A DNA stretch of 64,000 nt from Limisphaerales bacterium. GTDB lineage: Bacteria > Verrucomicrobiota > Verrucomicrobiia > Limisphaerales > AAA164-E04. Of the stretch, positions 8,504 through 62,872 are shown piece by piece. Made by a program: the position numbers and the translations under genes. The stretch spans positions 1,107,371 to 1,171,370 of the forward strand of contig OZ245740.1 in the NCBI GenBank assembly GCA_965227305.1, given 5' to 3'. A model generated the notes under the pieces. That model saw only the letters and a list, made by a program, of their open reading frames with translations, was not told where the DNA came from and did no database searches. Position 1 is the first letter of the stretch, and each line of letters opens with the position of its first letter.

Positions 8504-8752
8504 TCCGTTTTTTTGCCGTGTCTTGGTGCCTGTGTTTTGACCGTGTCGAATTGCGAAATTCCTTTGGTTTAGCAGATCTCATGCCGCTGGGAATGGTGTG
8601 ATCGACCCGTGGATATTTGTTGCATTCGGGTCACGTTTTCAAGCAAGAATCAGGACGTGACGGGCTGGTTTAAGCCGACCAGGGGTGAATGGAGTTGGAG
8701 GCGGAACAACGGCCTGCCATATGGGGAGAAGGTGTCCACTTTTTGCCGCACC

Positions 8753-21477: not shown

Positions 21478-21557
21478 CGCTCCGTGGCTAACTTGCCTTA
21501 CGATTGGATGGTTTTGGAGAGACGGAAGGTGTCCCGGCGGCGCCAAGGAAGACGATC

Positions 21558-45812: not shown

Positions 45813-47315
45813 TTACGGTAGCGCTTTGATATCCGGGTAATTGAGGAGAAACTCCCGGCGTTGGTCTGCAAAGGTCTTCAGGCTCATGATCGTCCGTTCT
45901 CCGCGTGGCATGTCGGTTTCAACCAGCGTGCGGAACGCTTCATAAGAAGCGAGCTTGCGCGTATCGCGTTTGACATCGGGATCAATCATCGCTTGATAGC
46001 GCCGAGCGATGGGGCCTAAACGGTCCCAGTCGAGCCACTTCTTGGCGATGTCTCGTACGATCTCTAGATACCGCGTTCGGAGGGAAGGCACGGCAAGGAG
46101 TCGGCTCAGTAAAACCTTGTCGGGATCTTCCGATCCGATGAAGGGATCCAGATCGGTACCGCGTTCCGCGTCGCCTCGGATACGCGCTGGGGCATCGTAG
46201 AAGGCCTCATTCCCGTCGTGCGGGTAAACTACGAAGCGACCGTCTTTTCCGCGGTAGAGGTTGTAGTCGCTGGCACGGATCCAGTAGCCGTCATCGTTGA
46301 TGAACGCGCTTTCGAGCGCGAGGAACCGCAGGGCGGCTTCGATATCAAAAATCGGTTCGAGCTCGGCTTCGAGTTCGTCGAGTGGCGTGTTGGTCAGTAC
46401 ATTGCAAAGTTGGATGAGAGCCTGCCAGGCTTCCGGATCTTCTTTGCTGTGGAGTTCGTAGTGTTTGCGATATGCGTCGACGTCATCGCCGATGTAATTG
46501 AGTCCCGCCGTGGCCCACGGGCTGCCGGGGGCTTTCCAGCGGTTGCCCGATTTGGTGCCCCACCAATCTTTGATGAAATCCTTGTCTTCTTGTTGGGTGT
46601 TGACATAAACGCCCCAATACTTGCCGTTGATGATCAATTTGACGAAGTTGGCTTCGGGAGCCGCAGTGTATTCGCGGGCGATTTGGTAATACAACACCGC
46701 CTTGAGCATGGTGGGGTCCCCGTTTGAGTTGAGGAGGTTGAAGGTGCGGTAGCCTTCCAAGTTCTGACCGGGGACGACGAAGTCCAGTTTGAGGTTGAGC
46801 GAGCGTTTGCGTCCCTCGGCGACGAAGAGGAAGGACGAGGCGCCACGGCAGTGCACGCCGACGTTTTCGAAGCGTTTGCGATCGACGATCAGACGGGCGG
46901 GCACGTCGATGTCGGTGAAGCGAAATTCGGTGAGGGCGCGTTCCCAGTCCGGGTCTTCAAACTCGAGAAAGAAGGTGCGCACGGTAAGCGGGTCAAATGC
47001 CGGTCGCCCCGGGTAGGCGCGCACATCGGATTGGCGCACGGGGTGACCGGGGCGGGTGGGTTCGCCACCGGGGAAGGGGCGGGGCCGTCCGGACGGCGGG
47101 CGTTTGGCGGCTTCTTCGGCGAGGGTTTTGCGGGCGACTTGGCGTTCGGCAGCATTGAGCCAGCCGTCTTGGTTGGCATCGAAGCGGTCTTGGGCTTGTT
47201 CTTCGATCGAGAGGGTTTTGGCCCAGGGCGGGGCTTGGCGGCGTTGGGCGGATGCCTCGGGTGCCAGGGTGAGGACCAGAAGGCACACGAGGGCGGCAAG
47301 AGAAACATGTGGCAT
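45813..47315 (-). CDS. Exported CotH kinase-family protein (stand-alone, 500 aa) with EF-hand-like N-terminal loop
   Basis: Signal peptide MPHVSLAALVCLLVLTLAPEASAQ; loop DANQDGWLNAAE. CotH core: FLEFEDPDWERALTEF..RKRSLNLKLDFVVPGQNLEGYRTFNLLNSNGDPTMLKAVLYYQIAREY..NFVKLIINGKYWGVYVNTQQEDKDFIKDWW..YELHSKED. Confidence 0.85.
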   Translation of the reverse strand: MPHVSLAALVCLLVLTLAPEASAQRRQAPPWAKTLSIEEQAQDRFDANQDGWLNAAERQVARKTLAEEAAKRPPSGRPRPFPGGEPTRPGHPVRQSDVRAYPGRPAFDPLTVRTFFLEFEDPDWERALTEFRFTDIDVPARLIVDRKRFENVGVHCRGASSFLFVAEGRKRSLNLKLDFVVPGQNLEGYRTFNLLNSNGDPTMLKAVLYYQIAREYTAAPEANFVKLIINGKYWGVYVNTQQEDKDFIKDWWGTKSGNRWKAPGSPWATAGLNYIGDDVDAYRKHYELHSKEDPEAWQALIQLCNVLTNTPLDELEAELEPIFDIEAALRFLALESAFINDDGYWIRASDYNLYRGKDGRFVVYPHDGNEAFYDAPARIRGDAERGTDLDPFIGSEDPDKVLLSRLLAVPSLRTRYLEIVRDIAKKWLDWDRLGPIARRYQAMIDPDVKRDTRKLASYEAFRTLVETDMPRGERTIMSLKTFADQRREFLLNYPDIKALP

Positions 47316-48188: not shown

Positions 48189-48533
48189 ATGGCTACGACG
48201 ACGCGCGAGGCGATCCGGACGTATCGGATTCATTTGGAATCGGTCGGGGCCGCTTGTGACCGGCCTGAGGATCAAATGATCGATCGCGGTTCGTATTTCT
48301 ATTTTGCCTATCCGGAGAGGTGGATCGGACGGAATGGGGTCTTCGTGGATAAGGCTTCGGGGCGGCTGTTTGTTGTCGGGAGTATTGCTGCCTCGATTGG
48401 CTTTACTCTGGTTGCCAGATGCCGCGGAAGAAGGTGGGGGCCTGTGAGGACGGGATGGTGCGGGTTTGTCGGTGTTGGTAGCGTTCGAATCGGATTTCTT
48501 CCTGAGGGATCCATTGGTGCAGATCTTGGCTAG
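48189..48533 (+). CDS. Small hypothetical protein (YrhB/immunity-protein-like N-terminal ~65 aa?), 3' part overlaps a convergent giant gene
   Basis: The ATG is 3 nt after the HD gene stop. The N-terminal 65 aa look protein-like (IDRGSYFYFAYPERWIGRNGVFVDKASGRLFVVGS). The last ~45 aa (RCRGRRWGPVRTGWCGFVG..) look like antisense read-through of the 48403..54492 gene. Confidence 0.4.
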   Translation: MATTTREAIRTYRIHLESVGAACDRPEDQMIDRGSYFYFAYPERWIGRNGVFVDKASGRLFVVGSIAASIGFTLVARCRGRRWGPVRTGWCGFVGVGSVRIGFLPEGSIGADLG

Positions 48534-51500
48534 ATTCGACGGTAACGACCCCCTCGCGGCTTGAGGTGATATCGATTTGGCTTTCGCCGAATTCATCAAC
48601 ATAGATGTGAAGTCCGACAGCTGAGGTGGGGGGGCGCAGCCGCCCGTCGTTTGTGGCGTTGCCTCTCGGGTGCTGCCACGCGTTAGGGTCGAGTGTGACG
48701 CCCGGTAACTTGTGAACCGACAGAACAAGGTCGAGCAAGTAAAGATTGCCTTCTGGCCCAATCGAGCCGGGTGACTGCCAAGAGCCGCCAAGGTACTTTG
48801 CTATGAGTGAACCATCCGTTGAGTCCAGTCTGTGAGTTTGGATTGATTCAGAGACAAATACCGTGCCGTCCGAAGCCACGACCGGAATTATGGAATGGTG
48901 ATTTGGGCCCCATTTGCTCGGGGTTGCCTCCCAAAGGATTGAACCGCTTCGGATGTCTACCGCATAAACAGTGCCCCTAGCTCCCAGGTAGACTTGCCCG
49001 CTGCTTGCGATACTAATGTTCGTGGGGAAGGTGTCTGGAAGAGATTGTCGAGCTTTCTCAGGTTCGACTTGAACTCGCCACAATTCAGTGCCGGTGTCAC
49101 CGTCTAGGGCGATGATGGTTCCGTCATTGATGGTGCTGCATACCGCGACGCTTCTGTCTGCCGGGTTTGTGCTTGTCGGAGGTTCATGCCACAGGGCTAC
49201 ACCGTCTCTAAAGCGGAGATCCGGGTGCGTTGCTTTCCATGAGATGACTTGGTTTTCTGGATCGATGGCGAAGATAGTGTCCAGTACATGACGTCTTTCT
49301 CCGCCAACCGCAAAAAGACGACCTTTGGTATCAATGCTTACCGATCCTATGTGTGGCGCTTCGGGCAGTTCTAGTAGGCCGTTGTCTGTGCCTGAGTTGC
49401 GGTTGTATTTTTGATTGCCGAGCCAAATTGTTTCGTGGGCGTCGATTGCTGGGAAGCTGTCCTTTTGGTTGCTGGTCACTGACCAAAGTGTTGAACCATT
49501 GGTTGCATCGTAGGCACTAAGGGTTACCGGTTTTCCGGAGCCTTCTATCGTTGGGAAGATGACGACGTTGGGGGACGGCAGAATGGGGGGGAGGGCACTG
49601 TAGATCTCAATATTCTTTCTCCAGATACTATCACCCGTAAAGCGATCTAACGCTTCCAATGAGCGGCTGTATCCGTAGAACAGCATCGTGTCAGTCAGAG
49701 CTCCGGGGGCATAGGGTTCGAAGCTTAGTCCACTCGATGCCCAGTGCCTATCATTGGTGTCAGGGACCACTAACGCTCCGATAGTTAGGTCGCGTCCTTC
49801 GCCTTGGATCTGAATCGAGGGGGACAGTACGTCAATGGTGTCTTGGATCGGCGGTGCCGTGTTAAATGTCCAGGAGTGAAACACTTCACCGGGGGCCAGA
49901 AGGGGACTAATTGTTACTACTTGGTCTTGTCCATATCGTTCTTGCCGTGGGCTGACTTTGACTTTGTCGAAAAAGGATAGGACGGTGAGTCTCCAGCCCG
50001 GTTCGACGGGGATTGGTGTCGACCACGCCTCTCCGTATGCGTTCTTGGCTTGAAGTTGATAGATCGACTCAGGCTCGTCGTAGCTCTCGCGTTTGACCGT
50101 GAGAATGGTCGCGTTGGCCCCTTCAATGGCTTCTCCATCTTTCCACCATTGAAATTCAAACGGAAGAGTGCCTTCAAATCTTGCGTAGATCTCGGTCCCT
50201 GTGGTGACGAATGCTCCGGTCGGGTCACGCCCGGTGCCGACGGAGTAGGTGTGACCGCTAGCTGAAATGAATTCTGGTGGTCTGCCGCGAGTTAAATGTG
50301 AGTTTGGGAGTGGGGTGCCGGGGGACTCCGTGATCTCCGCTTCCGATCTTTGAATGCGCGTGAGTTCACCGAACTGATTCACTCCGTAGACATAGTCCTG
50401 GTAGACAAATCGGCTGTTCATGGAGATTTGGCTGCGCCAATGAATCTCGCCCGTTTGTGTGTCGAACGCGGTTAGGCCCTCTGCTGTGCTGAAGTAGATG
50501 GTCTCGCCGCTACTGAGGGTTTCCGGGAATGGCGTCGGCGTTGGCGCCCGCCATCGAACGGCTCCAGTCTTCTTGTCAATGAAGAGGATACCGTCATTTC
50601 GGTTTTCGCTTTCGGGATCTTTTCGACCAATGACCAGGCCGGTGGGGGTCGTCGCTCGAAATCCGAGCAGGGTTTCCGGTGTCTCAATCGCCCACAAGGG
50701 TTCGCTATTGTATGCGTGATAAGCTTTAAGTTTGTTGCCTGAGACTTCGTAGATGGTCTCTGATTCTTGGTCGAGTATGGCGATAGGAGTGCCTCGGGCG
50801 GTGAGTGGGCGAGGGAAGGATTGGAGTCTGGGATACGTGCGAGAGCCAGCTGGCTGACCGGTCAAAGCGTCAATGGGAGCCAGACGACGTGTGAAACTGC
50901 TTTGATGACCGCCATAGATGAGACTGCTGGCGGTTGGGGTAATGTGGTTGAATTCCGTTTCCCAGAGTTTTGCCCCCGTGGTGGTGTCGTAGGCGAGAAG
51001 CCTTTCGATGATATCGGAGAGCAGTAGGTCGGGCCCCGCCCAATAGAGAATTCCTTTTGAGTTGATCTGAAATACGTTGAGGATGGCGCCGTCTAGATCT
51101 AGGAGGGTCAATTCACCCGCCAGAAGTGCGATTTGATCCGGAGTTGAGATCATTTGAGAGGGGCTATGCGTAGTGAATGTCCGGGGAACTGGGCGGCGCC
51201 ATTGAACGGCTTCGGTTTCCAGATCATATGCGACAATGCTGTGGCCGTCCTCATCTTCCGTGATCGCGACCAGGAGCCGCGGATTCGGTCGTGTCATTGG
51301 TCGGATCAGTCTTGAGGGCGGATTTTCGAACGCGACGCTAGATCCGGGGAGCAGGGCTGGATTCTTGGTGAAGCGAGCGAGGAGTTGGCCCGAATGGTTG
51401 GGTGCGAATGTGAGTGGATTGTCGGTGCTTGTTTGGTCTTCGTATTCCCAACTTTGAAAGACCCAGCTTTGATTCCTTGGAATAGCGGTGGCAGTTAGGC

Positions 51501-54492
51501 TGTCGCCGGGAGCGACGATGCCTGAACTATCCTCGAACTGTATTCGTCCATTGCCGCGAATAGAGGGGGTCATTTCAATCACGCCTTGTGCGGTGATCGG
51601 ATCGCTTGCTAGTTCACCATCCACCGTTCTCGCCACGAAGGTGTATTGACCGATACTGGTTGCTTGGGATTCTGAAATCGAAAGGGTTGGTCGAGTCTGA
51701 TCGACGAGTGCTACGCCATCGTGGAACCAGGTTCCTGAGATGTCCGGGCTTCGACTGATTTGAACTGGGATCTCGAGTCTTTCCCCGATCTTGAAACGGA
51801 GGCTTCTTGGCTGAGAAATGATTGAGGGAGGAGCATTGGCTAGAGGAGCTGTGCCTGCATTGGACGTGGCATGGCGGTTGGCCCGAGGCCAGGCGCTGAT
51901 GGCGGGCCGAAGTTCGGGGATCTCGAATGTGACCACTCGGCCATCTCGAGTTGTGGAGGTAAGACGATTCCCGGAAGCATGGATCAACGGACTTGATTCG
52001 AGAAGGCCTGGACTAGTGAGTCGGGACAGTTCAACTCCTGTCGAGGCCTCCAATTGGATCAATTCTCTGGTTGCATTCCCGAGGAAGAGCCGGTCGTGTG
52101 CGTCCAGGCAAATGCTGTCGTGCTGAGTCATTCCGGCGTCATAGGACCAATGCTGTTGTCCAGTATGGAGATCGATTCCGTAAATGTGGCCGTCGAAGCC
52201 GGTGGCGATAACGTGTCCGGTGTTTGAGATCAGAGGCGTTCCGGCTACCGGTGTTCCGAGATCGCGTTCCCACACGATCTCGCCCTGTTGAGTGGTCAGG
52301 CGCCGAACGATTCCATCCCAACCGCCGAGGTAGGCGTATCCTTTAAAATCAAGCGATATTCCGGCCTCCACGCTGTTTTCGAGTTGAGTGGACCAATGGA
52401 GGGATCGGGTTTTTGTGTCGAGTGCGTATACCCAACCAGCCATATCAGCGAAGTAGGCGATCCCGTTGAGATCGATTGCGGGTGCGGCGGCAATGCGTTC
52501 CTTGGCTTCAAACGAATGTTTCACGGCCCCCGTTTGCAGGTCAACGAAATGTAGCTTGCCTCCTTCAGTGGCCCAGATGACTTCGTCCCGTTCGATGACG
52601 GGCGGCGCCGTGCCTCCTCGCGGGAAGGTGCGTTGCCACAGGGGGGCGCCCGTTGCGGCGTCGAACGCGGAAAGGTTCCCTTGCAGGTCCCCAACGCAAA
52701 TGGTGGAGGCGGCAATTGCGGGGGCGCCGACTGTTGGGCCGATTGAGTGGGTCCGCCAAAGTTCCGTGCCTGAGCTTGGATCGATGGCGGCCAGCACTCC
52801 GTCGAGGGAAGCTGAGATCAGGGTGCGTTCTGGAGTTGCGGAAACCGCCGTCAATGCGCTGGCGCCAAGATCGGTTGCCCAGAGCGCATCGTGATCCACA
52901 GGCGGCAGCTCTCGGGAGTCTGGGGTGATCTTTTCGATCTGATTGGTTTCTAGATTCAGGCTATAGACGTTCCAAGTGGGGATAGTGGATGAGTCGACGT
53001 CTGAAGTAGGTTCGCCGGGTGGGACGGGGCTTGTGAAGATCAGTCTTCGATTATCTTGAGTGAAGAAACTTGGAAACCACATGGTTGAAAGTTGAGCACT
53101 CCAGCTGGCTAAGAGGCGTTGTTCCGCACGGATCGTGTCAAAGAGCTTGATATTGATTCTGTCTGGCGTGGTGCGAGCACTGTTGTTGGAGCGTTTGAGG
53201 CGGAGTAAGGTTTTCTCGATGAAGGCGATCCATCGCCCGTCTGGGCTGACCTTTGTGGCTTCTTGTGCGATGTTTTGAAGGTGTTGTTCAGAGCTACTCC
53301 GAGCCGTATGTGTGCCGCCGATCTGGAGGGGGAGTGTGCGATCATCCAAGCGGTCGTAAATGACGGCGTGACTCGTTCCAGCCGGGCCGTAGTTTGAAAT
53401 GCTTTCGGTGACTGCGGCGATGGTCGTGGTCCCGGAACGGTCGAGCGAGAGGCTGTCCTCAACGAGAATCGTCTGGTCGCGTAGACTACGACTATATCTA
53501 TGCTCCGCGCTCGGAAGGGGAAAGAGCCTCGTTTGTATTGTGTCGAAACTGAGTAAGTAAGTTTTCGCCAAAAAGGGTCCATTCGGTGCTGGAAGGAACG
53601 CTTGCCGTGGCTTCATGAGAAGTTTGTTTCCGGCGCCGGACAGGACGACTTCGGACGGATCGAAGAATGCGGGTCGATCACGGTTCCCTCCAATCGCCGC
53701 TCCGAATCTCGAGAAGTCGATGTGCGTCAGTTTCTCATTCGTCGCGTTCCAGATATAGAGCCCCCCAAACTTCCCCTCAGTAAATTCAGCGAGGTGATTC
53801 AGTCCCGAGGTGACGAGTGCGGTGTTTCCGGATTCATCGATGTTGATCACTCGGCTAGATGGATTCGTTTGGCTTGAGCGTTGGTTCGATGGCGTGAGCC
53901 GGGTCACCGTCTGCCGATGAAAACTGTAGGCGAAGGCATCGGAGCTGTTGTTTTGGTCGTCGTCTACGAGATCGAACGCGAAACTCTCGAAATACAATTG
54001 GGTCGCGCTGCTCGCCATTTTGGCGTTCCAGGAGTCGCCATTACCCGGGGTACTCGTGTTCTGGGCAGTAGAAACTAGGCGCACCGTTCGCGCCCAGCAA
54101 TCATAGACGAAGATATTCGAGCGTCGCGGGTGGACCGTCTGGTCCTCGGAATTTAGCGGCGCTTCGAAAGCGATGAACCTTCCATTGCCGCCTAGCGAGC
54201 CGCCTAACAGGTTCTGCCCCAATTCGACGCCTCGATAGTCTGGCAGCTCAATCGTTTCCGTCTTTCCCGTTGTGAGATCGTGTAGTAGTAGCGGTGAGAT
54301 GGCGGTTTGGGCGGGGTTCTGATTCCTTGCGTCGCCAAAATCCGAAAAGGTCAATAGGAATCGAGAATCAGCGGATGCCTCGATAGCGAATGAACTGGCT
54401 GCTTGGGTGGGCGGGTTGATCGAAATGAACGCGGCCAGAAGCAAACTGAGCTTGCCCGCAGATTCGAAGACACTTGGGGTTGAATTGTTCAT
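48403..54492 (-). CDS. Giant exported protein (2,029 aa): multiple PQQ/BamB-like beta-propellers, Ig I-set-like and InlB-B-repeat-like domains
   Basis: Signal-like N-terminus MNNSTPSVFESAGKLSLLLAAFISINPPTQAAS. At least 15 blade motifs of the PQQ-like type: GTELWRTHS, GAPLWQRTF, SLHWSTQL, EIVWERDL, QQHWSYDA, GAKLWETEF, EPLWAIETP, AVRWRAPTP, EIHWRSQI, DSIWRKNI, STLWSVTS, VISWKATH, TELWRVQV, SILWEATP. Ig-like: PPSIISQPRSLRFKIGERLEIPVQ..GQYTFVARTVDGE and FEFQWWKDGEAIEGANATILTV..IYQLQAKNAYGE. Visibly more A/T-rich than its neighbours (by eye). Confidence 0.8.
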   Translation of the reverse strand: MNNSTPSVFESAGKLSLLLAAFISINPPTQAASSFAIEASADSRFLLTFSDFGDARNQNPAQTAISPLLLHDLTTGKTETIELPDYRGVELGQNLLGGSLGGNGRFIAFEAPLNSEDQTVHPRRSNIFVYDCWARTVRLVSTAQNTSTPGNGDSWNAKMASSATQLYFESFAFDLVDDDQNNSSDAFAYSFHRQTVTRLTPSNQRSSQTNPSSRVINIDESGNTALVTSGLNHLAEFTEGKFGGLYIWNATNEKLTHIDFSRFGAAIGGNRDRPAFFDPSEVVLSGAGNKLLMKPRQAFLPAPNGPFLAKTYLLSFDTIQTRLFPLPSAEHRYSRSLRDQTILVEDSLSLDRSGTTTIAAVTESISNYGPAGTSHAVIYDRLDDRTLPLQIGGTHTARSSSEQHLQNIAQEATKVSPDGRWIAFIEKTLLRLKRSNNSARTTPDRINIKLFDTIRAEQRLLASWSAQLSTMWFPSFFTQDNRRLIFTSPVPPGEPTSDVDSSTIPTWNVYSLNLETNQIEKITPDSRELPPVDHDALWATDLGASALTAVSATPERTLISASLDGVLAAIDPSSGTELWRTHSIGPTVGAPAIAASTICVGDLQGNLSAFDAATGAPLWQRTFPRGGTAPPVIERDEVIWATEGGKLHFVDLQTGAVKHSFEAKERIAAAPAIDLNGIAYFADMAGWVYALDTKTRSLHWSTQLENSVEAGISLDFKGYAYLGGWDGIVRRLTTQQGEIVWERDLGTPVAGTPLISNTGHVIATGFDGHIYGIDLHTGQQHWSYDAGMTQHDSICLDAHDRLFLGNATRELIQLEASTGVELSRLTSPGLLESSPLIHASGNRLTSTTRDGRVVTFEIPELRPAISAWPRANRHATSNAGTAPLANAPPSIISQPRSLRFKIGERLEIPVQISRSPDISGTWFHDGVALVDQTRPTLSISESQATSIGQYTFVARTVDGELASDPITAQGVIEMTPSIRGNGRIQFEDSSGIVAPGDSLTATAIPRNQSWVFQSWEYEDQTSTDNPLTFAPNHSGQLLARFTKNPALLPGSSVAFENPPSRLIRPMTRPNPRLLVAITEDEDGHSIVAYDLETEAVQWRRPVPRTFTTHSPSQMISTPDQIALLAGELTLLDLDGAILNVFQINSKGILYWAGPDLLLSDIIERLLAYDTTTGAKLWETEFNHITPTASSLIYGGHQSSFTRRLAPIDALTGQPAGSRTYPRLQSFPRPLTARGTPIAILDQESETIYEVSGNKLKAYHAYNSEPLWAIETPETLLGFRATTPTGLVIGRKDPESENRNDGILFIDKKTGAVRWRAPTPTPFPETLSSGETIYFSTAEGLTAFDTQTGEIHWRSQISMNSRFVYQDYVYGVNQFGELTRIQRSEAEITESPGTPLPNSHLTRGRPPEFISASGHTYSVGTGRDPTGAFVTTGTEIYARFEGTLPFEFQWWKDGEAIEGANATILTVKRESYDEPESIYQLQAKNAYGEAWSTPIPVEPGWRLTVLSFFDKVKVSPRQERYGQDQVVTISPLLAPGEVFHSWTFNTAPPIQDTIDVLSPSIQIQGEGRDLTIGALVVPDTNDRHWASSGLSFEPYAPGALTDTMLFYGYSRSLEALDRFTGDSIWRKNIEIYSALPPILPSPNVVIFPTIEGSGKPVTLSAYDATNGSTLWSVTSNQKDSFPAIDAHETIWLGNQKYNRNSGTDNGLLELPEAPHIGSVSIDTKGRLFAVGGERRHVLDTIFAIDPENQVISWKATHPDLRFRDGVALWHEPPTSTNPADRSVAVCSTINDGTIIALDGDTGTELWRVQVEPEKARQSLPDTFPTNISIASSGQVYLGARGTVYAVDIRSGSILWEATPSKWGPNHHSIIPVVASDGTVFVSESIQTHRLDSTDGSLIAKYLGGSWQSPGSIGPEGNLYLLDLVLSVHKLPGVTLDPNAWQHPRGNATNDGRLRPPTSAVGLHIYVDEFGESQIDITSSREGVVTVESSQDLHQWIPQEEIRFERYQHRQTRTIPSSQAPTFFRGIWQPE

Positions 54493-55400
54493 TCGACCGG
54501 AGCTGTCATGCGCTTGGCGAGCCAGAGTGAATCTTCGTTGCGTCCTAGGGTTGGCCCGAATTGCCGCGTTTGTGTGGTGTAGCCGTTGCTATCAAGCGTA
54601 CGGTGGAGTCGGGTGCTGAGATGTTGCCAGCGATGGATCGAAGCGTGTCCATCGGCGTACCCGATGACCGTTCCGTTGCTGTGCATGGCGCTGGGTAGAT
54701 CCCTGAGGCTGGCGTGTTCGTAGAATGGACCCTTTTCGGCGTTCCACACATTGAGGATGAACTGGGGGTAATTGATAAGGTCGAGGTGTCGGCTAAGGAA
54801 GGTGATGTGTGACCCTGGTTCGGGGACGGTCAAGTCGGCGAGGTTGGTGTAATGTCTGAGATTTCGGAAGTCCCTGACAAACTGCCCACCCATCCATTGG
54901 TTGAGTCCGTAGGTTCGAACAATGGGTGAGACGGCGCCGTCGTTGTAGGCCTCGTTCCGACCTACCGCGGGATGTGACGGGCACCGAAATAGGTGGGCGT
55001 GGCCATTGAGATAGGGCCACATTGGGCTTTGTGGCGGGCCTACTGTCGGGTCGATCAGTTCGACTGGGGCCTGGCCTTGGACTCTGCCATTGACTGTCCT
55101 CTTTGCCTCCTGCCATCTGAATTCGCCCATACCGCTCCAGTCCTTGACGCTTTCACCGTCTTCGTTTGGCCCGGAACCCGCCCAGGGTATGCGGCCTTCC
55201 CGGTCATCAGCATAAAGCCGCCACGCCTGGTTCAATTGCCGGACGTTGTTCATGCACGCAACGGTTCGAAACGTGCCATGGTGCCGAGGGGGGGAGGCGG
55301 TCAGAAGGACGGAAGCGATAATAAAAGCTGATCCGGCTAGGGTGAGGACTTCTAGTCGACTGAAACCGGCCGGGCTTTTCGAAAACCAGTCTCCTTGCAT
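54489..55400 (-). CDS. Prepilin-type N-terminal cleavage/methylation protein with H-X9-DG motif (DUF1559-like pseudopilin)
   Basis: ORF 54489..55556, trimmed to ATG 55400 (MQGDWFSKSPAGFSRLEVLTLAGSAFIIASVLL). This gives G|FSRLE with Glu at +5 followed by a hydrophobic helix. C-terminal HSNGTVIGYADGH is H-X9-DG. The stop overlaps the ATG of the 2,029-aa gene (ATGA at 54489-54492). Confidence 0.75.
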   Translation of the reverse strand: MQGDWFSKSPAGFSRLEVLTLAGSAFIIASVLLTASPPRHHGTFRTVACMNNVRQLNQAWRLYADDREGRIPWAGSGPNEDGESVKDWSGMGEFRWQEAKRTVNGRVQGQAPVELIDPTVGPPQSPMWPYLNGHAHLFRCPSHPAVGRNEAYNDGAVSPIVRTYGLNQWMGGQFVRDFRNLRHYTNLADLTVPEPGSHITFLSRHLDLINYPQFILNVWNAEKGPFYEHASLRDLPSAMHSNGTVIGYADGHASIHRWQHLSTRLHRTLDSNGYTTQTRQFGPTLGRNEDSLWLAKRMTAPVE

Positions 55401-55489
55401 GAGGGGAGTGTGGCGTAGGTTGGGGGTGGGAAGCAATGATGGTTTTGGGGAATGGCTTGTTTTTGGGTGGCAGGCCAGTTGTGGTGGGG

Positions 55490-55511
55490 CATCGACTGAA
55501 GTCGATGTCAC
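55490..55511 (+). repeat. Family-1 REP-like hairpin copy (GTCAC variant)
   Basis: ggggcatcgacTGAAgtcgatg-tcac. It sits in the divergent intergenic region between the starts at 55400(-) and 55546(+). Confidence 0.75.
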
Positions 55512-55545
55512 CGCGGCACTGTTATTGCTGGCGTTTCCGGTGGTG

Positions 55546-58500
55546 ATGGGGCTCAATAGTGCGGTTGTGGTGAAGTTTGGTTTTGGGGTTTCTGGTCTTT
55601 TGCTGGCCTTGTTGGTCAGCAGCGGTGGGGTGTCGTGTGCGCAGAACCCGCCACCGGATCCCGGTCCGTTCGGGATCTCGGAGTTTTTGGCTTCAAACCG
55701 GTCCGGGCTTCGTGACGCTCAAGGGAATCGATCCGACTGGATCGAACTGTATAACCCCGGGCCCGGGACGCTGAATCTCGAGGGCTATAGCCTAACCGAT
55801 GAACCGGATCGCCCCCGAAAATGGGTGTTTCCTCGTGCGCCTGTCCCGGCTGGGGGTTACCTCATCGTGTTTGCAGTGGGCGATGCGGCGGAGTCCCTTT
55901 CGCGGGATAGCGATGGGCGGCTGTATGCGAATTTTCGACTGAGTGCATCTGGGGAATATCTTGCGCTGGTGGATCCATCGGGTTCCGTGGTTCAATCTTG
56001 GGATGATGGGTTTCCCCCTCAGCTTCCGGATGTTTCTTTCGGTCGATCCAATGGAGGGGCAGATGCGTTCTTTGCTCAACCGAGTCCCGGAGAGCCGAAT
56101 GGATCGCAGTCGTTTGCGGGCGTGGTGGATGCCGTCCAACTCAGTCATGAACGGGGCTTTTACGAAGCGCCGTTTCTGCTGCGACTGAATGTACCGACCG
56201 ATGGGGCGACGATCCGCTACTCGCTGGATGGTTCCAATCCAGATGGGCGCGGGGGGGCGATTTATCGCGAGCCGATCACGGTGGATGGCACCCGCATTCT
56301 CAAAGTGGTGGCGTCGAAGCCGGGTTTTTTGCCATCCGGCACCCAGACACATACCTATTTGTTCCTGGATCAAGTCGTCCAGCAACCGGCGGATCCCGAT
56401 GGTTTTCCGACGGATTGGGGACGGGATGGTGAAGTACCGGGACGTGTGGTTGCGGACTATGAAATGGATCCGCGAGTAACGGCATCGACGCTGCCTGGCT
56501 ATGGCGTGAAGGAGGCCCTGTTGGATCTGCCTTCTTTATCGGTGTCGCTTCCTGCAGACGATCTCTTTGGACCGTCAAGCGGCATTTATACGCACCCAAA
56601 GAGTCGCGGGAATGCGTGGGAGAAAGTGTGTTCGATCGAGTGGTTGGATTCTCAGGGCGAGTTGGGGTTTCAGACCAACTGTCAGATCGAAGTGCATGGC
56701 AATTCGAGTCGGCGTCCTTGGCGGATGCAGAAGCATTCGTTTCGACTGACGTTTTTGGGAGCCTTGGGCGCAACACGGCTGGAGCAACCTTTGTTCGCTG
56801 ATTCGCCGGTGGACCGGTTTAACAAGCTTGTACTGCGAGCGGCGTTCACGGATAGTTGGGGCTTGGTGAGCTGGGCTCCAGGGCGGTATCGACCGAACGA
56901 TTCCCAGTATGTTCGAGATATTTGGATGAAGGAATCTTTGCGCGATATGGGGCATGGCTCAAGCCACGGCCGTTGGGTTCACCTCTATTTGAATGGATTG
57001 TATTGGGGGATCTATAATGTCACCGAGCGGTTGGATGGGGATTTCTTCGCGGATCATCTCGGCGGTGACGCCGATGACTGGGAAGTGTTGCCAGACTTTG
57101 GAGGAAGCACGCCGGGCTGGTCGGCCCTGTTCTCAAGGGCGCGTGCGGCTCGGGCGGATGCGCCGGGCGTGGAAGAGGATTTGGCGGGGTTGCTCGATAT
57201 CGACAACTTTATCGATTACATGATGCTGCATTTCTATGCGGACGCCGAGGATTGGCCGCATCAGAACGGGTATGCGGCACGGAACGGCGGAGCGGACGGT
57301 CCATTTCAGTTCTTTGTTTGGGATCAGGAAATCGTGCTCGATAACCTGCAGATGCAGCGTTATGGCAGCGCTCAGGGGAGTCGACCCGGGGAACTCTTCC
57401 AACTGCTTCGGCGGCATGAGTTTTTTCGGTCGCGATTTGCCGATCGTGTGCAGTACCACCTCTTCGGGGACGGCGGTTTGAATCTCGCGGACTCACAAGC
57501 ACGCTACCGTCGCGTTTCCGCTGCCATCGATCGAGCCATTGTCGCTGAGTCTGCCCGTTGGGGGGACACGCAGCGAAGCACTCCTTACGGGAATCGAATC
57601 GAGCAACCCAGCAATCGGAATAACACGCGTGATTTGCGTTATCCCCCGGCGCCGAATGGGCCGGACTACTTCTTTACGCGGGAAGATTCGTGGCTGCCCG
57701 AACGGGAAAACGTGATCAACGATTACTTGCCGGCCATCTATGACCCTGCGGAACGCAATAGCCTCATCCGAGAGTTACGAGCACAACGATTGTATCCCAA
57801 CATCGATCCGCCGCGAATTGAAGCGAATGAACGTGGGGACAGCGGCTTCCGCGTGGCGATGGAGGTTCCGACTGGGCACACGGTCTACTACACCTTGGAT
57901 GGTTCGGATCCGCGCGTGGCGGTTGCGGTCGAGCGGGATACGGTTTCGCTGATTGATAGCGATTCTCGGGTGTATTATCGAATTCCCACTTCGGCTGGGC
58001 CGGGCCGGGATTGGATTGCGAGCGACTTCGATCACTCCGGCTGGGACTCGGGAAGCTTGGCAGTGGGGTATGAAACGAGTCCCGCTGACTACGCTGGATT
58101 GATTCGGTCGCGCGTTGGTGCGATGCGGAACCAAACGCCGTCTGTCTATCTACGAATCCCGTTTCGAGTGGGGAGTGGGATGGTGCCGTCGGGGGCGCGC
58201 CTCATGTTGCGGATGCGGTATGACGATGGGTTTGTGGCCTTCCTGAATGGTCAACGCGTCGTCGATGCCAATGCGCCTCGGACCCTGCGCTGGAATTCTC
58301 AAGCGACGGACAGCCATGCCGATGCCGCTGCCGTGCAATGGGTGGCGTTTGACGTGACGGAGCACCTCGGTGAGTTGGTCACCGGGGAGAATGTGTTGGC
58401 GATTCAGGGGCTGAACACGGCGTCCAGTAGTACGGACTTATTGATCCAGCCTGAGCTTTTTCTGGAGACCACGGTAGGGCCCGATCCGGGGGAAGTCGTC

Positions 58501-59445
58501 AATGGGACGCGCTATGTGGGTCCGTTTGATGTGGAGCATACGTCGACCTTGAGTGCGCGGTCTTTTCGGAATGGAGAGTGGAGCGCTTTGACGAGCGCGT
58601 GGTTTTTTGTCGGGGAAGCGGCTTCGGCACAGAATCTGGAGATTGCGGAGATTCACTATCATCCGGTCGGGGATGCGGATTCGGAGTATTTGGTTTTACG
58701 GAATCGGCTGCAGGATCGATCGGTGGATTTATCGGGAGCGGCGTTGGTTGCGGGGGTTGGTTTTGAATTCCCGGCTCGAACGGTCTTGGGACCTGGGGAG
58801 ACAGGGGTTCTGGTGCGTTCGGAAACGGTGTATCGGGCAGTATTTGGTGCAGGGCATCGTTTTTTGGGAGAATACGAGGGCGCTCTGGCGAATGGCGGCG
58901 AGCGGGTTCGGCTGGAGTCGGCGGACGGGGCTGTGATTGTGGACATGGAGTATGACGACGCGGCACCGTGGCCGATAGCGGCGGACGGTATGGGGTCGAG
59001 TTTGATTTTGGTGAGTGGTGCGGATCCGGTTTTGCCGACGAGTTGGCGGGTGGAAGTGCCGCTGACGCGGCCCGTGTTGCCCGTGGATGGGGCCGCGGAT
59101 CGGGATGGCGATGGGCTGAGTGCTTTGTTGGAGTATGCCTTGGGGACCTCGGATACGGACCCGGCTTCGGGGTGGGATGCGATTGATTACTCGGTTGAGA
59201 CGGAAGGGGACGATTCGTTTTTTGTGGTGCGGTTTCGTCCGGATCCGTTGGTGGTGGATGTGGTGATCCAACCCGAGGCGACGTTTGAGTTGGAGGTGCC
59301 GGAGTGGCGGGCGGATTTGTTGGTTGAAGTCGCGGGCGCGGGAGACGGGGATGGCTTTGCGGGTTGGCGGTCGTTTCGGTTGGTGCGGGCGATTGGGAGG
59401 AATGCGGTTGGGTTTGTTCGGTTGGGGGTTTTGGGCGGGCGGTGA
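55546..59445 (+). CDS. Exported LTD - CotH kinase-family - jelly-roll - LTD protein
   Basis: ORF 55246..59445, trimmed to ATG 55546 (MGLNSAVVVKFGFGVSGLLLALLVSSGGVSCAQ). LTD: GISEFLASNRSGLRDAQGNRSDWIELYNPGPGTLNLEGYSLTD. Chitobiase-C-like segments: GATIRYSLDGSNP and TVYYTLDGSDP. CotH core: NKLVLRAAFTDSWGL..IWMKESLRDMGHGSSHGRWVHLYLNGLYWGIYNVTERLDGDFF. Jelly-roll: LRMRYDDGFVAFLNGQRVV..NVLAIQGLN. C-terminal LTD: LEIAEIHYHPVGDADSEYLVLRNRLQDRSVDLSGA. Asp-rich tail: DRDGDGLSALLEYALGTSDTDP. Confidence 0.85.
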   Translation: MGLNSAVVVKFGFGVSGLLLALLVSSGGVSCAQNPPPDPGPFGISEFLASNRSGLRDAQGNRSDWIELYNPGPGTLNLEGYSLTDEPDRPRKWVFPRAPVPAGGYLIVFAVGDAAESLSRDSDGRLYANFRLSASGEYLALVDPSGSVVQSWDDGFPPQLPDVSFGRSNGGADAFFAQPSPGEPNGSQSFAGVVDAVQLSHERGFYEAPFLLRLNVPTDGATIRYSLDGSNPDGRGGAIYREPITVDGTRILKVVASKPGFLPSGTQTHTYLFLDQVVQQPADPDGFPTDWGRDGEVPGRVVADYEMDPRVTASTLPGYGVKEALLDLPSLSVSLPADDLFGPSSGIYTHPKSRGNAWEKVCSIEWLDSQGELGFQTNCQIEVHGNSSRRPWRMQKHSFRLTFLGALGATRLEQPLFADSPVDRFNKLVLRAAFTDSWGLVSWAPGRYRPNDSQYVRDIWMKESLRDMGHGSSHGRWVHLYLNGLYWGIYNVTERLDGDFFADHLGGDADDWEVLPDFGGSTPGWSALFSRARAARADAPGVEEDLAGLLDIDNFIDYMMLHFYADAEDWPHQNGYAARNGGADGPFQFFVWDQEIVLDNLQMQRYGSAQGSRPGELFQLLRRHEFFRSRFADRVQYHLFGDGGLNLADSQARYRRVSAAIDRAIVAESARWGDTQRSTPYGNRIEQPSNRNNTRDLRYPPAPNGPDYFFTREDSWLPERENVINDYLPAIYDPAERNSLIRELRAQRLYPNIDPPRIEANERGDSGFRVAMEVPTGHTVYYTLDGSDPRVAVAVERDTVSLIDSDSRVYYRIPTSAGPGRDWIASDFDHSGWDSGSLAVGYETSPADYAGLIRSRVGAMRNQTPSVYLRIPFRVGSGMVPSGARLMLRMRYDDGFVAFLNGQRVVDANAPRTLRWNSQATDSHADAAAVQWVAFDVTEHLGELVTGENVLAIQGLNTASSSTDLLIQPELFLETTVGPDPGEVVNGTRYVGPFDVEHTSTLSARSFRNGEWSALTSAWFFVGEAASAQNLEIAEIHYHPVGDADSEYLVLRNRLQDRSVDLSGAALVAGVGFEFPARTVLGPGETGVLVRSETVYRAVFGAGHRFLGEYEGALANGGERVRLESADGAVIVDMEYDDAAPWPIAADGMGSSLILVSGADPVLPTSWRVEVPLTRPVLPVDGAADRDGDGLSALLEYALGTSDTDPASGWDAIDYSVETEGDDSFFVVRFRPDPLVVDVVIQPEATFELEVPEWRADLLVEVAGAGDGDGFAGWRSFRLVRAIGRNAVGFVRLGVLGGR

Positions 59446-59661: not shown

Positions 59662-60846
59662 ATGAGTTTTAATCTGAAAATAAACAACGAAAACACGGCC
59701 AATTACAGCAACAGTGAAGTGTATCTCGCCGTGATTACCCGAAAAGTCGCTGGGGGTGCCTTCTATTGGTATGATTTGGCGAGTAAGTCTTTGAAAGAAA
59801 TAAGCACGGCGGACAATACGCATTCGATCTCGCAGTACTCGCCGGGTTCGGGCAAAGACACCTACGCCAATTATTTCTTCAAGCTTTCCGATGTTTCGGA
59901 GCAAACCCTTAGCTTCAGCGAGACGTTGATTGGGAGTCGCATCTATGTCTCGTTGGGCGATTGGCTGCCCATTAAAGTGAACAGTTCGAGCGCCTATTCT
60001 CCGCCGTCGCCGACGAATCCCGTGTTGCCAGGGTATCAGACTATTTTTGACAAGCTCGAGCTCACCTATCAGCCCGACGCCAATGGAACGGACACGAAGA
60101 AACTCTACATTGACACCACCGCCGTCGATTTCATGGGGATTCCTATGACCCTGCAAATGGGTTCGGAAACCGTTGGTTTCTCCTCGACGCGAGCGAAATT
60201 GATCAGTGCCTTCACCTCCAAAGCGGCGACGACCTATTTGCCAGACTTGGTGGTTAAGAATCCGGCAAAGTCGACTGAGGTGCTTCGGATCTTGAATCCG
60301 ACGGGGACGGCTAATGATATGGGCTTGGTCATTCCGCAGGCAGCGGCTGACTACTTTGCCGGCTTCCTGACTGCGTATATCGATTCCGTGTGGAAAGCAT
60401 ACAAATCACCGCAATCCCTATCGATCAAGATCGGAGCCGACACGTATACCGGCCAAGTCGATGATTCTGATGTGTTTAATTTCTTTAGCGGCAGTGCGGC
60501 GAGTGGAACTAATGTGCTCGCACTCAATAAACCACCATCGTCCGATGTGTTGGGTTGTCGCAACTCCATGGCGTCCGGTAACGACGTGCAGAAGAATATC
60601 CAAAAGTTTCTGGCAGCGGCGATGGTGCGAACCGTTGCCCTAGAATCGCCCGGTACGGGGGATGCCTGGTGCTCTCAGTCGGCGAAGTATTACACGAATG
60701 CTCCTGTGTATGAATACGCCAACATTCTGCATGAACACAGTCACGACAAACTGTGCTATGCGTTTTCGTATGACGATGTTTGTGACCACAGCTCAACCCT
60801 GAAGACCAACACGCCATCGGTGACTTTGAACCTCAGTGCGTGGTAG
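59662..60846 (+). CDS. GH64-family (laminaripentaose-producing beta-1,3-glucanase / thaumatin-like superfamily) protein, no signal peptide
   Basis: 394-aa ORF. Family-like landmarks: MSFNLKINNENTANYSNSEVYLAVI, GSRIYVSLG, FDKLELTY (candidate acid Glu), YIDTTAVDFMGIPMTL (candidate Asp), YFAGFLTAYIDSVWKAY, YYTNAPVYEYANILHEH, CYAFSYDDVCD. No N-terminal hydrophobic segment. The gene and its 5' flank are visibly more A/T-rich than the surrounding DNA. Confidence 0.7.
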   Translation: MSFNLKINNENTANYSNSEVYLAVITRKVAGGAFYWYDLASKSLKEISTADNTHSISQYSPGSGKDTYANYFFKLSDVSEQTLSFSETLIGSRIYVSLGDWLPIKVNSSSAYSPPSPTNPVLPGYQTIFDKLELTYQPDANGTDTKKLYIDTTAVDFMGIPMTLQMGSETVGFSSTRAKLISAFTSKAATTYLPDLVVKNPAKSTEVLRILNPTGTANDMGLVIPQAAADYFAGFLTAYIDSVWKAYKSPQSLSIKIGADTYTGQVDDSDVFNFFSGSAASGTNVLALNKPPSSDVLGCRNSMASGNDVQKNIQKFLAAAMVRTVALESPGTGDAWCSQSAKYYTNAPVYEYANILHEHSHDKLCYAFSYDDVCDHSSTLKTNTPSVTLNLSAW

Positions 60847-60856
60847 TTGCTGGGCT

Positions 60857-60949
60857 GGTTGGGTTTGTTCGGTTTTGGGGGTATTGGGCGGGCGTTGAGT
60901 GGTTGGACGCGCGCTTTGGGCTTGGACTGAAGTCCAAGTTACGGTTGGC
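60857..60949 (+). repeat. Direct repeat B (~93 bp), right flank of the GH64 insert
   Basis: ggttgggtttgttcggttttgggggtattgggcgggcgttgagtggttggacgcgcgctttgggcttggacTGAAgtccaagttacggttggc. About 90 percent identical to repeat A by eye, with small indels that break the coding frame. Hairpin at 60921-60942. Confidence 0.9.
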
Positions 60950-60957
60950 TTGGCTCC

Positions 60958-61569
60958 ATGACGCTGGAGATTTATTCGGATTACGTGTGACCCTGGTGCT
61001 ACCTCTGCACCGGGCGTGTGGAACGATTGCAGAAGGAGTTCGAGCTGAAGGTGCGATGGATTCACTTTCCGTTGCATCCCGAAACGCCGGATGAAGGTCG
61101 GACCCTGGAACAGCTTTTCGCTGGGCGCGGCATCAACGTATCCGCAGCCCAAACGCGTATGGCGGGGTTAATGGCGGCCGAAGGGCTGCCCTATGGGGAT
61201 CGCACGATGACCTTCAATAGTCGGCTGGCTCAAGAGATTGCGGCCTGGGCGGTGGAGGAGACGGGGAATGAAGCGATTCACGGGGCCTTGTTTCGAGCGT
61301 ATTTTGTGGAAGGGCAGAATTTGGCCGATGTGTCGGTGCTCTTGTCTGTGATTCGTTCGCTGGGTTTGCCTATGGATGAGGCTAAGGACGTTTTGGAGAC
61401 CCGTCGATTTCGAGCTGCGGTGGATCGAGATTGGCAGCGGTCGGCGGAACAACGCGTTACGGGAGTGCCGAGCTTTTTGGCGGGGCTGCGTTGGCTAGAA
61501 GGAGCGCAGCCTTACGAGGCGTTGAAACATCTCGTTACGGTTGCTGGGGCGAAACCGCGGCTGGCCTAG
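60958..61569 (+). CDS. DsbA/FrnE-family thiol:disulfide oxidoreductase with in-frame TGA at the first Cys position of CXXC (candidate selenoprotein U-P-W-C; alternative: nonsense pseudogene)
   Basis: The ORF track starts at GTG 61018 (MERLQKEF..). The same frame read upstream gives ATG(60958) TLEIYSDYV-TGA(60988-60990)-PWCYLCTGRVERLQKEF.., which is the canonical family N-terminus (x-I-Y-S-D-x-x-C-P-W-C-Y) with TGA exactly where the catalytic Cys codon belongs. The rest matches the family: HFPLHPETP, FNSRLAQEIAAWA, ALFRAYFVEGQNLAD, RVTGVPSFL. 612 nt in total, giving 203 codons plus stop. Confidence 0.65.
60991..61032 (+). promoter_or_regulatory. Candidate SECIS-like stem-loops immediately downstream of the in-frame UGA
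   Basis: Hairpin 1 (60992-61014): ccuggugc / gcaccggg, 8 bp including one G-U, loop uaccucu. Hairpin 2 (61005-61032) excludes hairpin 1: cugca / ugcag plus cc/gg, with an apical loop starting GG about 22 nt after the UGA. I cannot judge by eye whether either satisfies a bacterial SECIS model. Confidence 0.3.
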
Positions 61570-61633
61570 GATCGACGCACGAAAACGAGCATGCCGCACG
61601 GGCACGCTCGAATTCTTTCTGGTATTTTTGGGA

Positions 61634-62872
61634 TTACTTCTCTTTGCCAGCGTTGGGGCCCAATACTTGGTATTGCGGGAGCGGTTTGAGGAGGAACAGC
61701 ATCTGTTTCTCACGCGTGCTTTCGATTTGGCTCTCTAGGATGAATCCCGCTTTCTGACCGGCATGCTGGAAGACCGACTTTGTGAAAGGCTTGCCACCCA
61801 TCGGGTCTGCCGAGGCTCCCAGGGCGACGTTTCCTTCTAAACGGTATTCAATGGCCGTATTTAACATGGCCTCCATGACTTGATTACCCAACTCGCGACT
61901 CATCGCGCCTGAGATCGCTGGGAAAACCAAGCGCCGTATCGGGTTCGGACTGTCTTTGGATTCTTGGTCGAACTGTTTGACCTCGGAGAGAAACTTTGCG
62001 ACGGGCTTGCGACACAAGGCTTCGAGAGCGTGGTAGTCTTGGTTAGCTTGATCAATGAGCTGGATCATGCCGTCCACGGTGGACCCTCCGGCTTGCTTGA
62101 ACTGGTTCCACGCTGAGTCCTGTTGTTCGACAGTGAACAGGTTGTTGAGGAGGGCTCTGGCGGCTGCTTCGGCCGAGGCTGCATCCGCCTCTGATTCGCG
62201 AATTTTTATCAGCTCGGTCCGGAGCCATCCCGCCATAAAGTGCTGCTCGGTTGGGACGGAATCGGCGATGGTATTGGGAGTGGGCACTCCGGCGATTCCG
62301 GCCTTGAGCTTCCGAAGGGCGTCGTCCGAGAATTGTCCGAAGTGCTCCGCAATGGTGGCTGCGCAGATTCGGTCAATGGCGTAATGGACCAAGAGGTTGA
62401 TAAGGATGGGAGATTGAGAGATATGACTGCTGAGGGTGTAGACCGAGAGGAGTTCATCGACCACGGCTTGTTCATTGCCATCTGCGAAATGAACCGCGGC
62501 TCGGACGCGAACGGTTTGCGCGATGGTGCGCGCTTCGGTGAGATACGGCAGCAGGAGATAGGGGCCTTCGGCCAGGTCGTCGCCCCAGTTGCAGCGAGCC
62601 GTCAAGGTGCGGGTCTTGGCCAGGCGACGGAAGGTCTCGTCGAATTTTGCTGCGAACTCGCGGGACTCGTCGGTGACTTCGATCTGTTCCCGGATGCGGG
62701 TGAATTGGTCTTGGTCAATTTCCGGCATCGTGGCGAATTCTCTCCAGTAAACTAGCGCCGGATTGGTGTTGCTCGGGAGTGCAGTTTCAGTGGCCCACGT
62801 ATTGGCTGGGGTTCCGAACAGTAGTAAGGCGATGAGAACGGCGATTCTTTTAATTTTGTAAAATGTTTTCAT
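61634..62872 (-). CDS. Exported alpha-helical hypothetical protein, third gene of an ECF sigma / anti-sigma operon
   Basis: 412-aa ORF with a signal peptide (MKTFYKIKRIAVLIALLLFGTPANTWA). Helix-rich composition, no family recognised. 62 nt downstream of the anti-sigma gene on the same strand. Confidence 0.6.
   Translation of the reverse strand: MKTFYKIKRIAVLIALLLFGTPANTWATETALPSNTNPALVYWREFATMPEIDQDQFTRIREQIEVTDESREFAAKFDETFRRLAKTRTLTARCNWGDDLAEGPYLLLPYLTEARTIAQTVRVRAAVHFADGNEQAVVDELLSVYTLSSHISQSPILINLLVHYAIDRICAATIAEHFGQFSDDALRKLKAGIAGVPTPNTIADSVPTEQHFMAGWLRTELIKIRESEADAASAEAAARALLNNLFTVEQQDSAWNQFKQAGGSTVDGMIQLIDQANQDYHALEALCRKPVAKFLSEVKQFDQESKDSPNPIRRLVFPAISGAMSRELGNQVMEAMLNTAIEYRLEGNVALGASADPMGGKPFTKSVFQHAGQKAGFILESQIESTREKQMLFLLKPLPQYQVLGPNAGKEK

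Follow-up and report, generated by a model that had tools for sequence, protein, structure and literature searches.

Does a TGA codon that falls on the active site of a thiol:disulfide oxidoreductase gene end the protein, or is it read as selenocysteine (Sec)? The question is raised by positions 60958–61569 (plus strand) of a 64-kb stretch of contig OZ245740.1 from a Limisphaerales bacterium; this whole stretch is termed the window throughout. An earlier note, made from the letters of the window, had proposed that these positions hold a DsbA/FrnE-family gene in which TGA stands for Sec and which open reading frame (ORF) calling had missed. The analysis described here supports that proposal, both through alternation between Sec and cysteine (Cys) codons among orthologues and through a hairpin specific to the Sec forms that resembles a bacterial selenocysteine insertion sequence (SECIS). 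Judged from sequence comparison, 60958–61569 is probably an intact, functional selenoprotein gene encoding a DsbA/FrnE-type oxidoreductase that lacks a signal peptide and carries the motif U11-P-W-C14, a reading to which a probability of roughly 0.87 is given. The gene is read in this way because its UGA coincides with a column at which the family alternates between Cys and Sec, because the protein belongs to the Sec clade of that family, and because the hairpin of the clade is present in the same register. The features on which the argument draws are as follows.

60958–61569, plus strand: full coding sequence of a predicted DsbA/FrnE-like thiol:disulfide oxidoreductase with Sec at residue 11 (open frame, PF01323, FrnE structure 5cnw, orthologue starts)
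60988–60990, plus strand: proposed Sec codon TGA, first position of the U-P-W-C motif (60988–60999; 34 orthologous loci have TGA here and 46 have TGC or TGT, aligned with the first Cys of the FrnE CPWC)
60988–61027, plus strand: UGA and SECIS region, matched by covariance model R1 (56.7 bits)
60990–61017, plus strand: competing UGA-proximal helix, in which 60990–60999 pairs with 61007–61017 (minimum free energy structure, exclusive with the SECIS hairpin)
61004–61022, plus strand: best-supported candidate SECIS hairpin (covariation, Sec-form specificity, frozen synonymous sites)
61018–61020, plus strand: GTG start of the 183-residue public call, internal codon Val21 (ORF list, public protein P0001)
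61459–61473, plus strand: cis-proline loop T-G-V-P-S, with Pro171 at 61468–61470 (aligned to the family GVTGVPTF and to the FrnE ITGVPFF)

The frame that opens at ATG 60958 and closes at TAG 61567–61569 comprises 203 codons, and its sole interruption is the TGA at 60988–60990, which is codon 11 and takes the place of the leading Cys in the CPWC active site. The N-terminus reads M-T-L-E-I-Y-S-D-Y-V-[TGA]-P-W-C-Y-L, exactly as had been noted, and the 192 codons past the UGA run to the TAG without a stop or frameshift. When Cys is substituted for the stop, residues 2–192 of the product match positions 1–189 of the 191 in the Pfam profile DSBA PF01323 (E=3.5e-31, 108.9 bits, cut-off 25.6), and this end-to-end match, together with that to the FrnE structure 5cnw (E=5.5e-20), bears out the DsbA/FrnE assignment. 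Scanning with NCBIfam returned no family-specific model (top match 21 bits, where 190 are required). Alignments of orthologues to the 203-residue protein begin at its residues 1–3; the protein itself begins at strand β-1, leaving no N-terminal room for a signal peptide, so that a cytoplasmic location is expected, and it has no Cys other than C14 and C17. It is also the case that the gene was missed by ORF calling: the ORF list gives only a 183-codon ORF from GTG 61018, and the public protein P0001, which lies on a contig of 10,495,379 bp and covers 90% of the query, is that 183-residue product. GTG 61018 is the internal codon for Val21 and lies within the 3′ arm of the SECIS hairpin; a product initiated there would be without strand β-1 and the entire redox motif.

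Relatives of the gene were scanned in one genome per species, which gave 80 orthologous loci with proteins 48–60% identical to that of the window. The critical codon is TGA in 34 of these, TGC in 34 and TGT in 12, so that the column always holds Cys or Sec and never tryptophan, and in all 80 loci it is preceded by LE[IV]F[ST]DY[VI] and followed by PWCYL. Alternation of TGA with TGC and TGT between conserved flanks is what typically identifies a family of selenoproteins. The earlier note had named such Cys/Sec alternation as a check on its proposal, and had argued from chance that a nonsense mutation would be unlikely to strike this one codon in 203; with TGA found at this codon in 34 of the 80 independent orthologues, its position is far beyond chance and the argument is no longer needed. 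The TGA carriers belong to the Alpha-, Beta- and Gammaproteobacteria, SAR324, Planctomycetes and Thermoanaerobaculia. A neighbour-joining tree places the window protein within an all-Sec clade, as sister to two Planctomycete copies, and its residues downstream of the motif follow the pattern of the Sec forms, L-[SC]-T-[VG]-R-[IV]-E, as opposed to the L-G-D-N-R-V-K or L-A-S-A-R-V-A of the Cys forms. A collection of 5.8 billion proteins yielded no closer relatives with which dN/dS (the ratio of non-synonymous to synonymous substitution rates) could be tested, the top non-self match being 61% identical. Identity to even the nearest relative is only about 60%, which means that TGA, hairpin and open frame have survived side by side through a long separate history.

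Elsewhere in the same tree, eight Burkholderiales Cys forms (L001, L004 and L015, region about 3028–3070, together with L002, L003, L007, L012 and L013) nest in a clade of 33 leaves whose other 25 leaves are all Sec forms. Three of the eight score 31–34 bits on the SECIS model, and L001, as an example, keeps CUCAGUAC...AUCGAG with a mutated loop. These nested copies look like recent reversions from Sec to Cys in which the SECIS is decaying.

The RNA element that would direct Sec insertion is best sought by comparing the two forms of the gene, and it is located at 61004–61022. In the window its 5′ arm is UCUGCAC (61004–61010), its loop CGGGC (61011–61015) and its 3′ arm GUGUGGA (61016–61022), giving a stem of 7 bp with two G-U pairs and a loop of 5 nt that begins 20 nt after the UGA (spacer 60991–61010). 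A hairpin of the form CUCAGUAC-CGKGC-GUAUUGAG is found in every Sec form at columns 16–36, counted from the U of UGA; it begins 13–14 nt past the UGA, and the stems of the relatives are 7–8 bp long. Across the 35 Sec forms (window included) 90% of its cells are paired, and in 500 shuffles of the columns neither the observed pairing nor the observed covariation was ever reached, whilst in the 46 Cys forms the same columns are paired in 52.5% of cells, which is the shuffle level. Compensatory change is seen at pair 19:33, which occurs as AU, UA, GC and UG, and at pair 21:31, which is UA in 25 Sec forms, CG in five and unpaired in none. The window itself deviates from the consensus on both sides of these two pairs with pairing kept (U19-G33 and C21-G31). 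The loop nucleotides C24, G25 and G27 are invariant and are present in the window, G25 being found in all 35 Sec forms. Constraint at the nucleotide level is likewise evident at synonymous sites: third-position entropy in the Sec forms is 0 at codons +5, +7, +8 and +9, as against 0.6–1.25 bits in the Cys forms, and over the hairpin the codons are frozen as CTC for Leu (33/33), ACC for Thr (35/35), GTG for Val (20/20) and CGT for Arg (34/34).

The published model of the bacterial SECIS describes an apical loop of 3–9 nt on an upper stem of 4–16 bp, a G at one or both of loop positions 1 and 2, 16–37 nt between the UGA and the loop, and a folding energy of −7.5 kcal/mol or lower (PMC13188914). 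The window hairpin agrees with it in loop and stem size (5 nt and 7 bp), in having G at loop position 2 and in its UGA-to-loop spacing of 20 nt, and is borderline in energy: the isolated 25-nt segment folds as the SECIS hairpin at −6.9 kcal/mol (87% of the ensemble), in comparison with −5.6 to −10.9 kcal/mol for the hairpins of the relatives taken alone. With the lower stem enforced the value is −15.2 kcal/mol, and unconstrained folding prefers another structure at −19.5 kcal/mol. An acceptable SECIS, which the earlier note had set as a further check, has thus been found in the shape of a covarying hairpin that is confined to the Sec forms and fits the published geometry.

Cys17, three residues past the U-P-W-C motif (U11-P-W-C14-Y-L-C17), is an additional feature of this region. 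It is shared by the Sec forms L006, L024, L025 and L076, most having Ser instead, and since its codon, TGC at 61006–61008, forms part of the 5′ side of the SECIS stem, the choice of residue may be imposed by RNA structure and not by the needs of the protein.

A covariance model, termed R1, was built from the 34 Sec-form orthologues with the window excluded and was used to search both strands of the 64 kb. A single strong match was obtained, at 60988–61027 on the plus strand (56.7 bits, E about 4e-22), and the next scored 9.2 bits. R1 cleanly separates the 46 Cys forms from every one of the 35 Sec forms, the orthologous Sec forms scoring 57.0–67.7 bits and the Cys forms 12.9–34.4 bits.

Two stem-loops directly after the UGA, at 60992–61014 and 61005–61032, had been pointed out in the earlier note, and both do exist in the window; neither is the supported SECIS. 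That at 61005–61032 was rejected for this role, as 53% of its cells pair in the Sec forms, no more than in shuffles. That at 60992–61014, which can be extended to 60990–61017, is conserved and was rejected for want of covariation and for its wrong geometry. In its extended form this proximal helix is the minimum free energy structure in the window (pair probabilities about 1.0, −16.3 to −19.5 kcal/mol); 90% of its cells are able to pair in the Sec forms and 63% in the Cys forms, and RNAalifold picks the same structure. Its 5′ arm consists of the Pro-Trp-Cys codons, and at 6:26, the sole pair free to vary, 21 of 30 sequences do not pair, with 499 of 500 shuffles equal or better. Only 9 nt separate the UGA from the loop, neither of whose first two nucleotides is G, and with the UGA in the A site the 5′ arm would be inside the ribosome, to judge from the known mRNA footprint. 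It is because the proximal helix lacks covariation, has the wrong loop geometry and would have its 5′ arm within the ribosome that SECIS function is assigned to 61004–61022 as the best-supported candidate. Bulk folding energies did not help in this choice: the single-sequence minimum free energy of the 63 nt after the UGA is no better than that of shuffles (z = −0.93), and mean folding energies of the Sec and Cys forms do not differ (−12.6 vs −12.1 kcal/mol, p=0.45). Bulk stability is therefore uninformative, and only the register-specific comparison revealed the SECIS element.

The Sec forms can form two mutually exclusive helices that are wanting in the Cys forms, the SECIS at columns 16–36 and the proximal helix at columns 3–30, the second of which pairs the SECIS loop nucleotides ACCGKG with the Pro-Trp-Cys codons. 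Of the two, the proximal helix is by a wide margin the more stable in the window. It has been considered whether the proximal helix might be a built-in masking switch, such that the SECIS loop would open to SelB only after the ribosome had unwound it. If this were so, recruitment of SelB would be coupled to arrival of the ribosome, and the gene would at the same time document Sec use in a large free-living subdivision 3 Verrucomicrobium; taken jointly these two ideas are speculative and rather unlikely.

Decoding of the gene can be pictured along the lines of the established bacterial Sec pathway (SelA, SelB, SelC, SelD). On arrival at UGA 60988 the ribosome would already have unwound the UGA-proximal helix, and the hairpin at 61004–61022 would then lie just outside the mRNA entry channel. 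SelB, in complex with GTP and Sec-tRNASec, would bind the G-containing apical loop CGGGC and compete with release factor 2 in bringing Sec to the A site, after which translation would run on to TAG 61567. By analogy with FrnE, the product may act as a cytoplasmic disulfide reductase or isomerase, the reactivity of which selenium would raise.

Several results weigh against this reading, and some of them are drawn upon by the idea that the gene is a relic, in which the Sec machinery has recently been lost, UGA 60988 now terminates translation, and a young pseudogene is seen before frameshifts have accumulated. No selA, selB, selD or tRNA-Sec gene was found within the 64-kb window, where ARAGORN reported no tRNA and Pfam and NCBIfam scans of the 33 ORFs reported no SelA, SelB or SelD; loss of the Sec trait is, moreover, common in bacteria (PMC1794560). 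Approximate E. coli SelD and SelA probes gave a tblastn match in L020 only, a Burkholderiales metagenome-assembled genome with the Sec form, where selA (PF03841, E=5e-149) lies at 1–1212 on the minus strand, about 1.8 kb from the DsbA-like gene at 3001–3594; this selA, a point in favour of the Sec reading, is the only Sec-machinery gene seen in the 80 fetched loci. The hairpin of the window, weakened by its two G-U pairs, falls by itself just short of the published energy cut-off (z = −0.41); prediction favours two other folds as more stable, and in full context gives its pairs a probability of about 0. The R1 score of the window is also the lowest of any Sec form, and Rfam gave nothing at the gathering threshold over the whole window and nothing at E up to 10 over 60900–61150, although Rfam may hold no model that fits a bacterial SECIS of this type. 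The protein, in addition, departs from the family at eight of 74 conserved columns, two of which (G166R and T172S) are invariant in all 80 relatives; these two, with G179W and V181E, adjoin the cis-Pro loop, the Pro171 of which is retained. The earlier view that the rest of the gene shows no decay thus holds for stops and frameshifts, of which there are no more, and for the 66 conserved columns that are kept, but not for the eight that have changed, which could reflect relaxed constraint. Set against a relic are the intact 192 codons beyond the UGA, the proportion of conserved columns kept (89%), which is similar to that of the Sec forms L038 and L059, the changes U19-G33 and C21-G31, which preserve pairing, the retention of C24, G25 and G27 in the loop, and the joint survival of TGA, hairpin and frame along a branch about 40% diverged from every relative. 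Loss of function of this kind is considered improbable, and a functional selenoprotein gene is preferred.

The other explanations deny that the TGA was ever a Sec codon in this lineage, or that it lies within the gene. An ordinary pseudogene could have arisen from a Cys-form dsbA/frnE by a nonsense mutation of TGC or TGT to TGA that fell on the active site by chance, for which one third-position transversion would be enough, and the public gene call does treat the TGA as a stop. This is very improbable, as the 40 nt concerned match the Sec element at a score far above the range of the Cys forms, the protein lies inside the all-Sec clade, and the downstream residues are of the Sec-form and not the Cys-form type. 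It is no more credible that the 183-residue ORF from GTG 61018 is the real gene, encoding a truncated protein without the redox motif: mechanical ORF calling and the public database both give it, but the ten codons ahead of the TGA encode, in frame, the conserved β-1 strand LEI[FY]SDYV, and the supposed start falls within the conserved hairpin and yields a product devoid of that strand and of the active site. Equally remote is the suggestion that the TGA is a sequencing or assembly error, or that UGA is decoded otherwise than as Sec, by genome-wide reassignment to tryptophan or by near-cognate read-through. A single-base error is possible at the assembly level, and UGA reassignment to tryptophan is reported for some Verrucomicrobiota (PMC13462651). 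Yet an error would not generate the SECIS of the Sec clade, and tryptophan is never found at this column in the relatives. Within the window, the 18 ORFs that are supported by domains contain 273 internal TGG and no internal TGA codons, and three of them end in TGA, so that UGA is a normal stop elsewhere in the window. A six-frame scan of the window for other selenoprotein genes with an in-frame TGA found nothing convincing besides that at 60988. The choice of stop codon in the window is itself unusual, being rich in TAG (TAG 11, TAA 4 and TGA 3 in the 18 domain-supported ORFs; TAG 18, TAA 7 and TGA 8 in all 33 long ORFs); in bacteria TAG is generally the least used of the three stops.

The genomic surroundings give no functional link to the DsbA-like gene, which is preceded by a GH64 (glycoside hydrolase family 64) β-1,3-glucanase gene at 59662–60846 and followed by a convergent ORF of no recognized function at 61634–62872 and an anti-sigma-like ORF at 62935–63567. 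Horizontal transfer is not indicated, the GC content of the gene being 0.582 overall and 0.642 at third positions (GC3), as compared with 0.579 and 0.662 for the window. Between the DsbA-like gene and the convergent ORF a 10-bp GC-rich hairpin is present at 61586–61610 with a T-run on the minus strand; it looks like a terminator of the minus-strand gene, and possibly serves both genes. Further afield, three proteins with CotH-kinase domains are encoded at 8609–12379 (plus strand), 45813–47315 (minus strand) and 55246–59445 (plus strand), two of them large (1256 and 1399 residues) and also bearing Lamin-tail domains. Near their genes lie those for a 3395-residue FG-GAP repeat protein (31556–41743, minus strand) and a 2029-residue PQQ/β-propeller protein (48403–54492, minus strand). 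The ORF at 21504–23801 (plus strand) fuses a SulP-family sulfate permease (PF00916) to a C-terminal β-class carbonic anhydrase (PF00484). The nearest relatives of TsaD (25321–26379, plus strand) are 65–70% identical and are Verrucomicrobia subdivision 3 or Pedosphaera-like, with the top non-self match (70%) on a contig of 9.77 Mb. A sulfatase, a PF07638 sigma factor and the giant proteins of the window might suggest a Planctomycete, a placement that the TsaD relatives overrule. The source of the window is a poorly sampled lineage of Verrucomicrobiota subdivision 3 with a very large genome (10.5-Mb contig).

What the locus changes is mainly a matter of annotation. The public call from the internal GTG drops the active site, so that any count of the selenoproteome falls short by one gene or more, and the ability of this genome to use selenium may go overlooked through such mis-annotation; R1 could serve to re-annotate other Sec-form DsbA-like genes. 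The gene adds a member from the Verrucomicrobiota, and hence from the PVC (Planctomycetes, Verrucomicrobia and Chlamydiae) group, to a selenoprotein family that is catalogued and functionally uncharacterized. A known family gains a mis-annotated member, and knowledge of Sec decoding is unchanged.

That family has been on record for two decades, and the statement in the earlier note that Sec-containing DsbA-like proteins had been reported is correct (PMC1088965; PMC1794560; PMC5029168; PMC13188914). A DsbA-like selenoprotein (COG2761, UxxC) was first described in 2005 from nine Sargasso Sea sequences (Zhang, Fomenko and Gladyshev, PMC1088965); in 2006 Anaeromyxobacter, Desulfovibrio and Desulfotomaculum were reported to have Sec-containing DsbA-like proteins (PMC1794560), 45 genes in 41 bacterial genomes were counted in 2016 (Peng et al., PMC5029168), and a 2026 review carries the entry ‘DsbA-like protein form 1, PF01323, UxxC’ (PMC13188914). 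The window gene probably belongs to this form 1, a placement that is set by the shared domain, the motif and the 34 Sec-form orthologues, and not by alignment to the published AACY01178397 and NIP15863.1. The two have in common the PF01323 domain, the UxxC motif with Sec at the attacking position, widespread Cys homologues, and a stem-loop after the UGA with a small, G-containing apical loop. Nothing fundamental differs; the copy in the window comes from a large (10.5 Mb) Verrucomicrobiota subdivision 3 genome and is at most about 60% identical to the members found.

The closest solved structure is that of Deinococcus radiodurans FrnE (5cnw, 5cp1), a cytoplasmic disulfide oxidoreductase/isomerase with the DsbA fold, to residues 14–212 of which residues 3–190 of the window protein align, with xPWC on CPWC. 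A CPWC-type motif at the N-terminal end of helix 1, a GVP cis-Pro loop and the absence of a signal peptide appear to be shared. FrnE differs in having Cys and not Sec, and in its length of 260 residues with a C-terminal tail that carries an extra CxxxxC motif used in recycling. Because the window protein ends at residue 203, because the match to FrnE extends only to residue 212 of its 260, and because no Cys follows C17, its sequence marks it as FrnE-like in the core and not as a FrnE orthologue. As regards the RNA, the paradigm bacterial element is the SECIS of E. coli fdhF, which likewise lies within the coding sequence directly 3′ of the UGA. With the fdhF element and the bacterial model the window hairpin shares a small apical loop in which a G precedes G or U, and its 20-nt spacing falls within the 16–37 nt of the model; the upper stem of fdhF starts 11 nt after the UGA, and that of the window about 13 nt after it. 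In comparison with fdhF, the window element is unrelated in sequence, has no evident bulged U, and is accompanied by a competing UGA-proximal helix.

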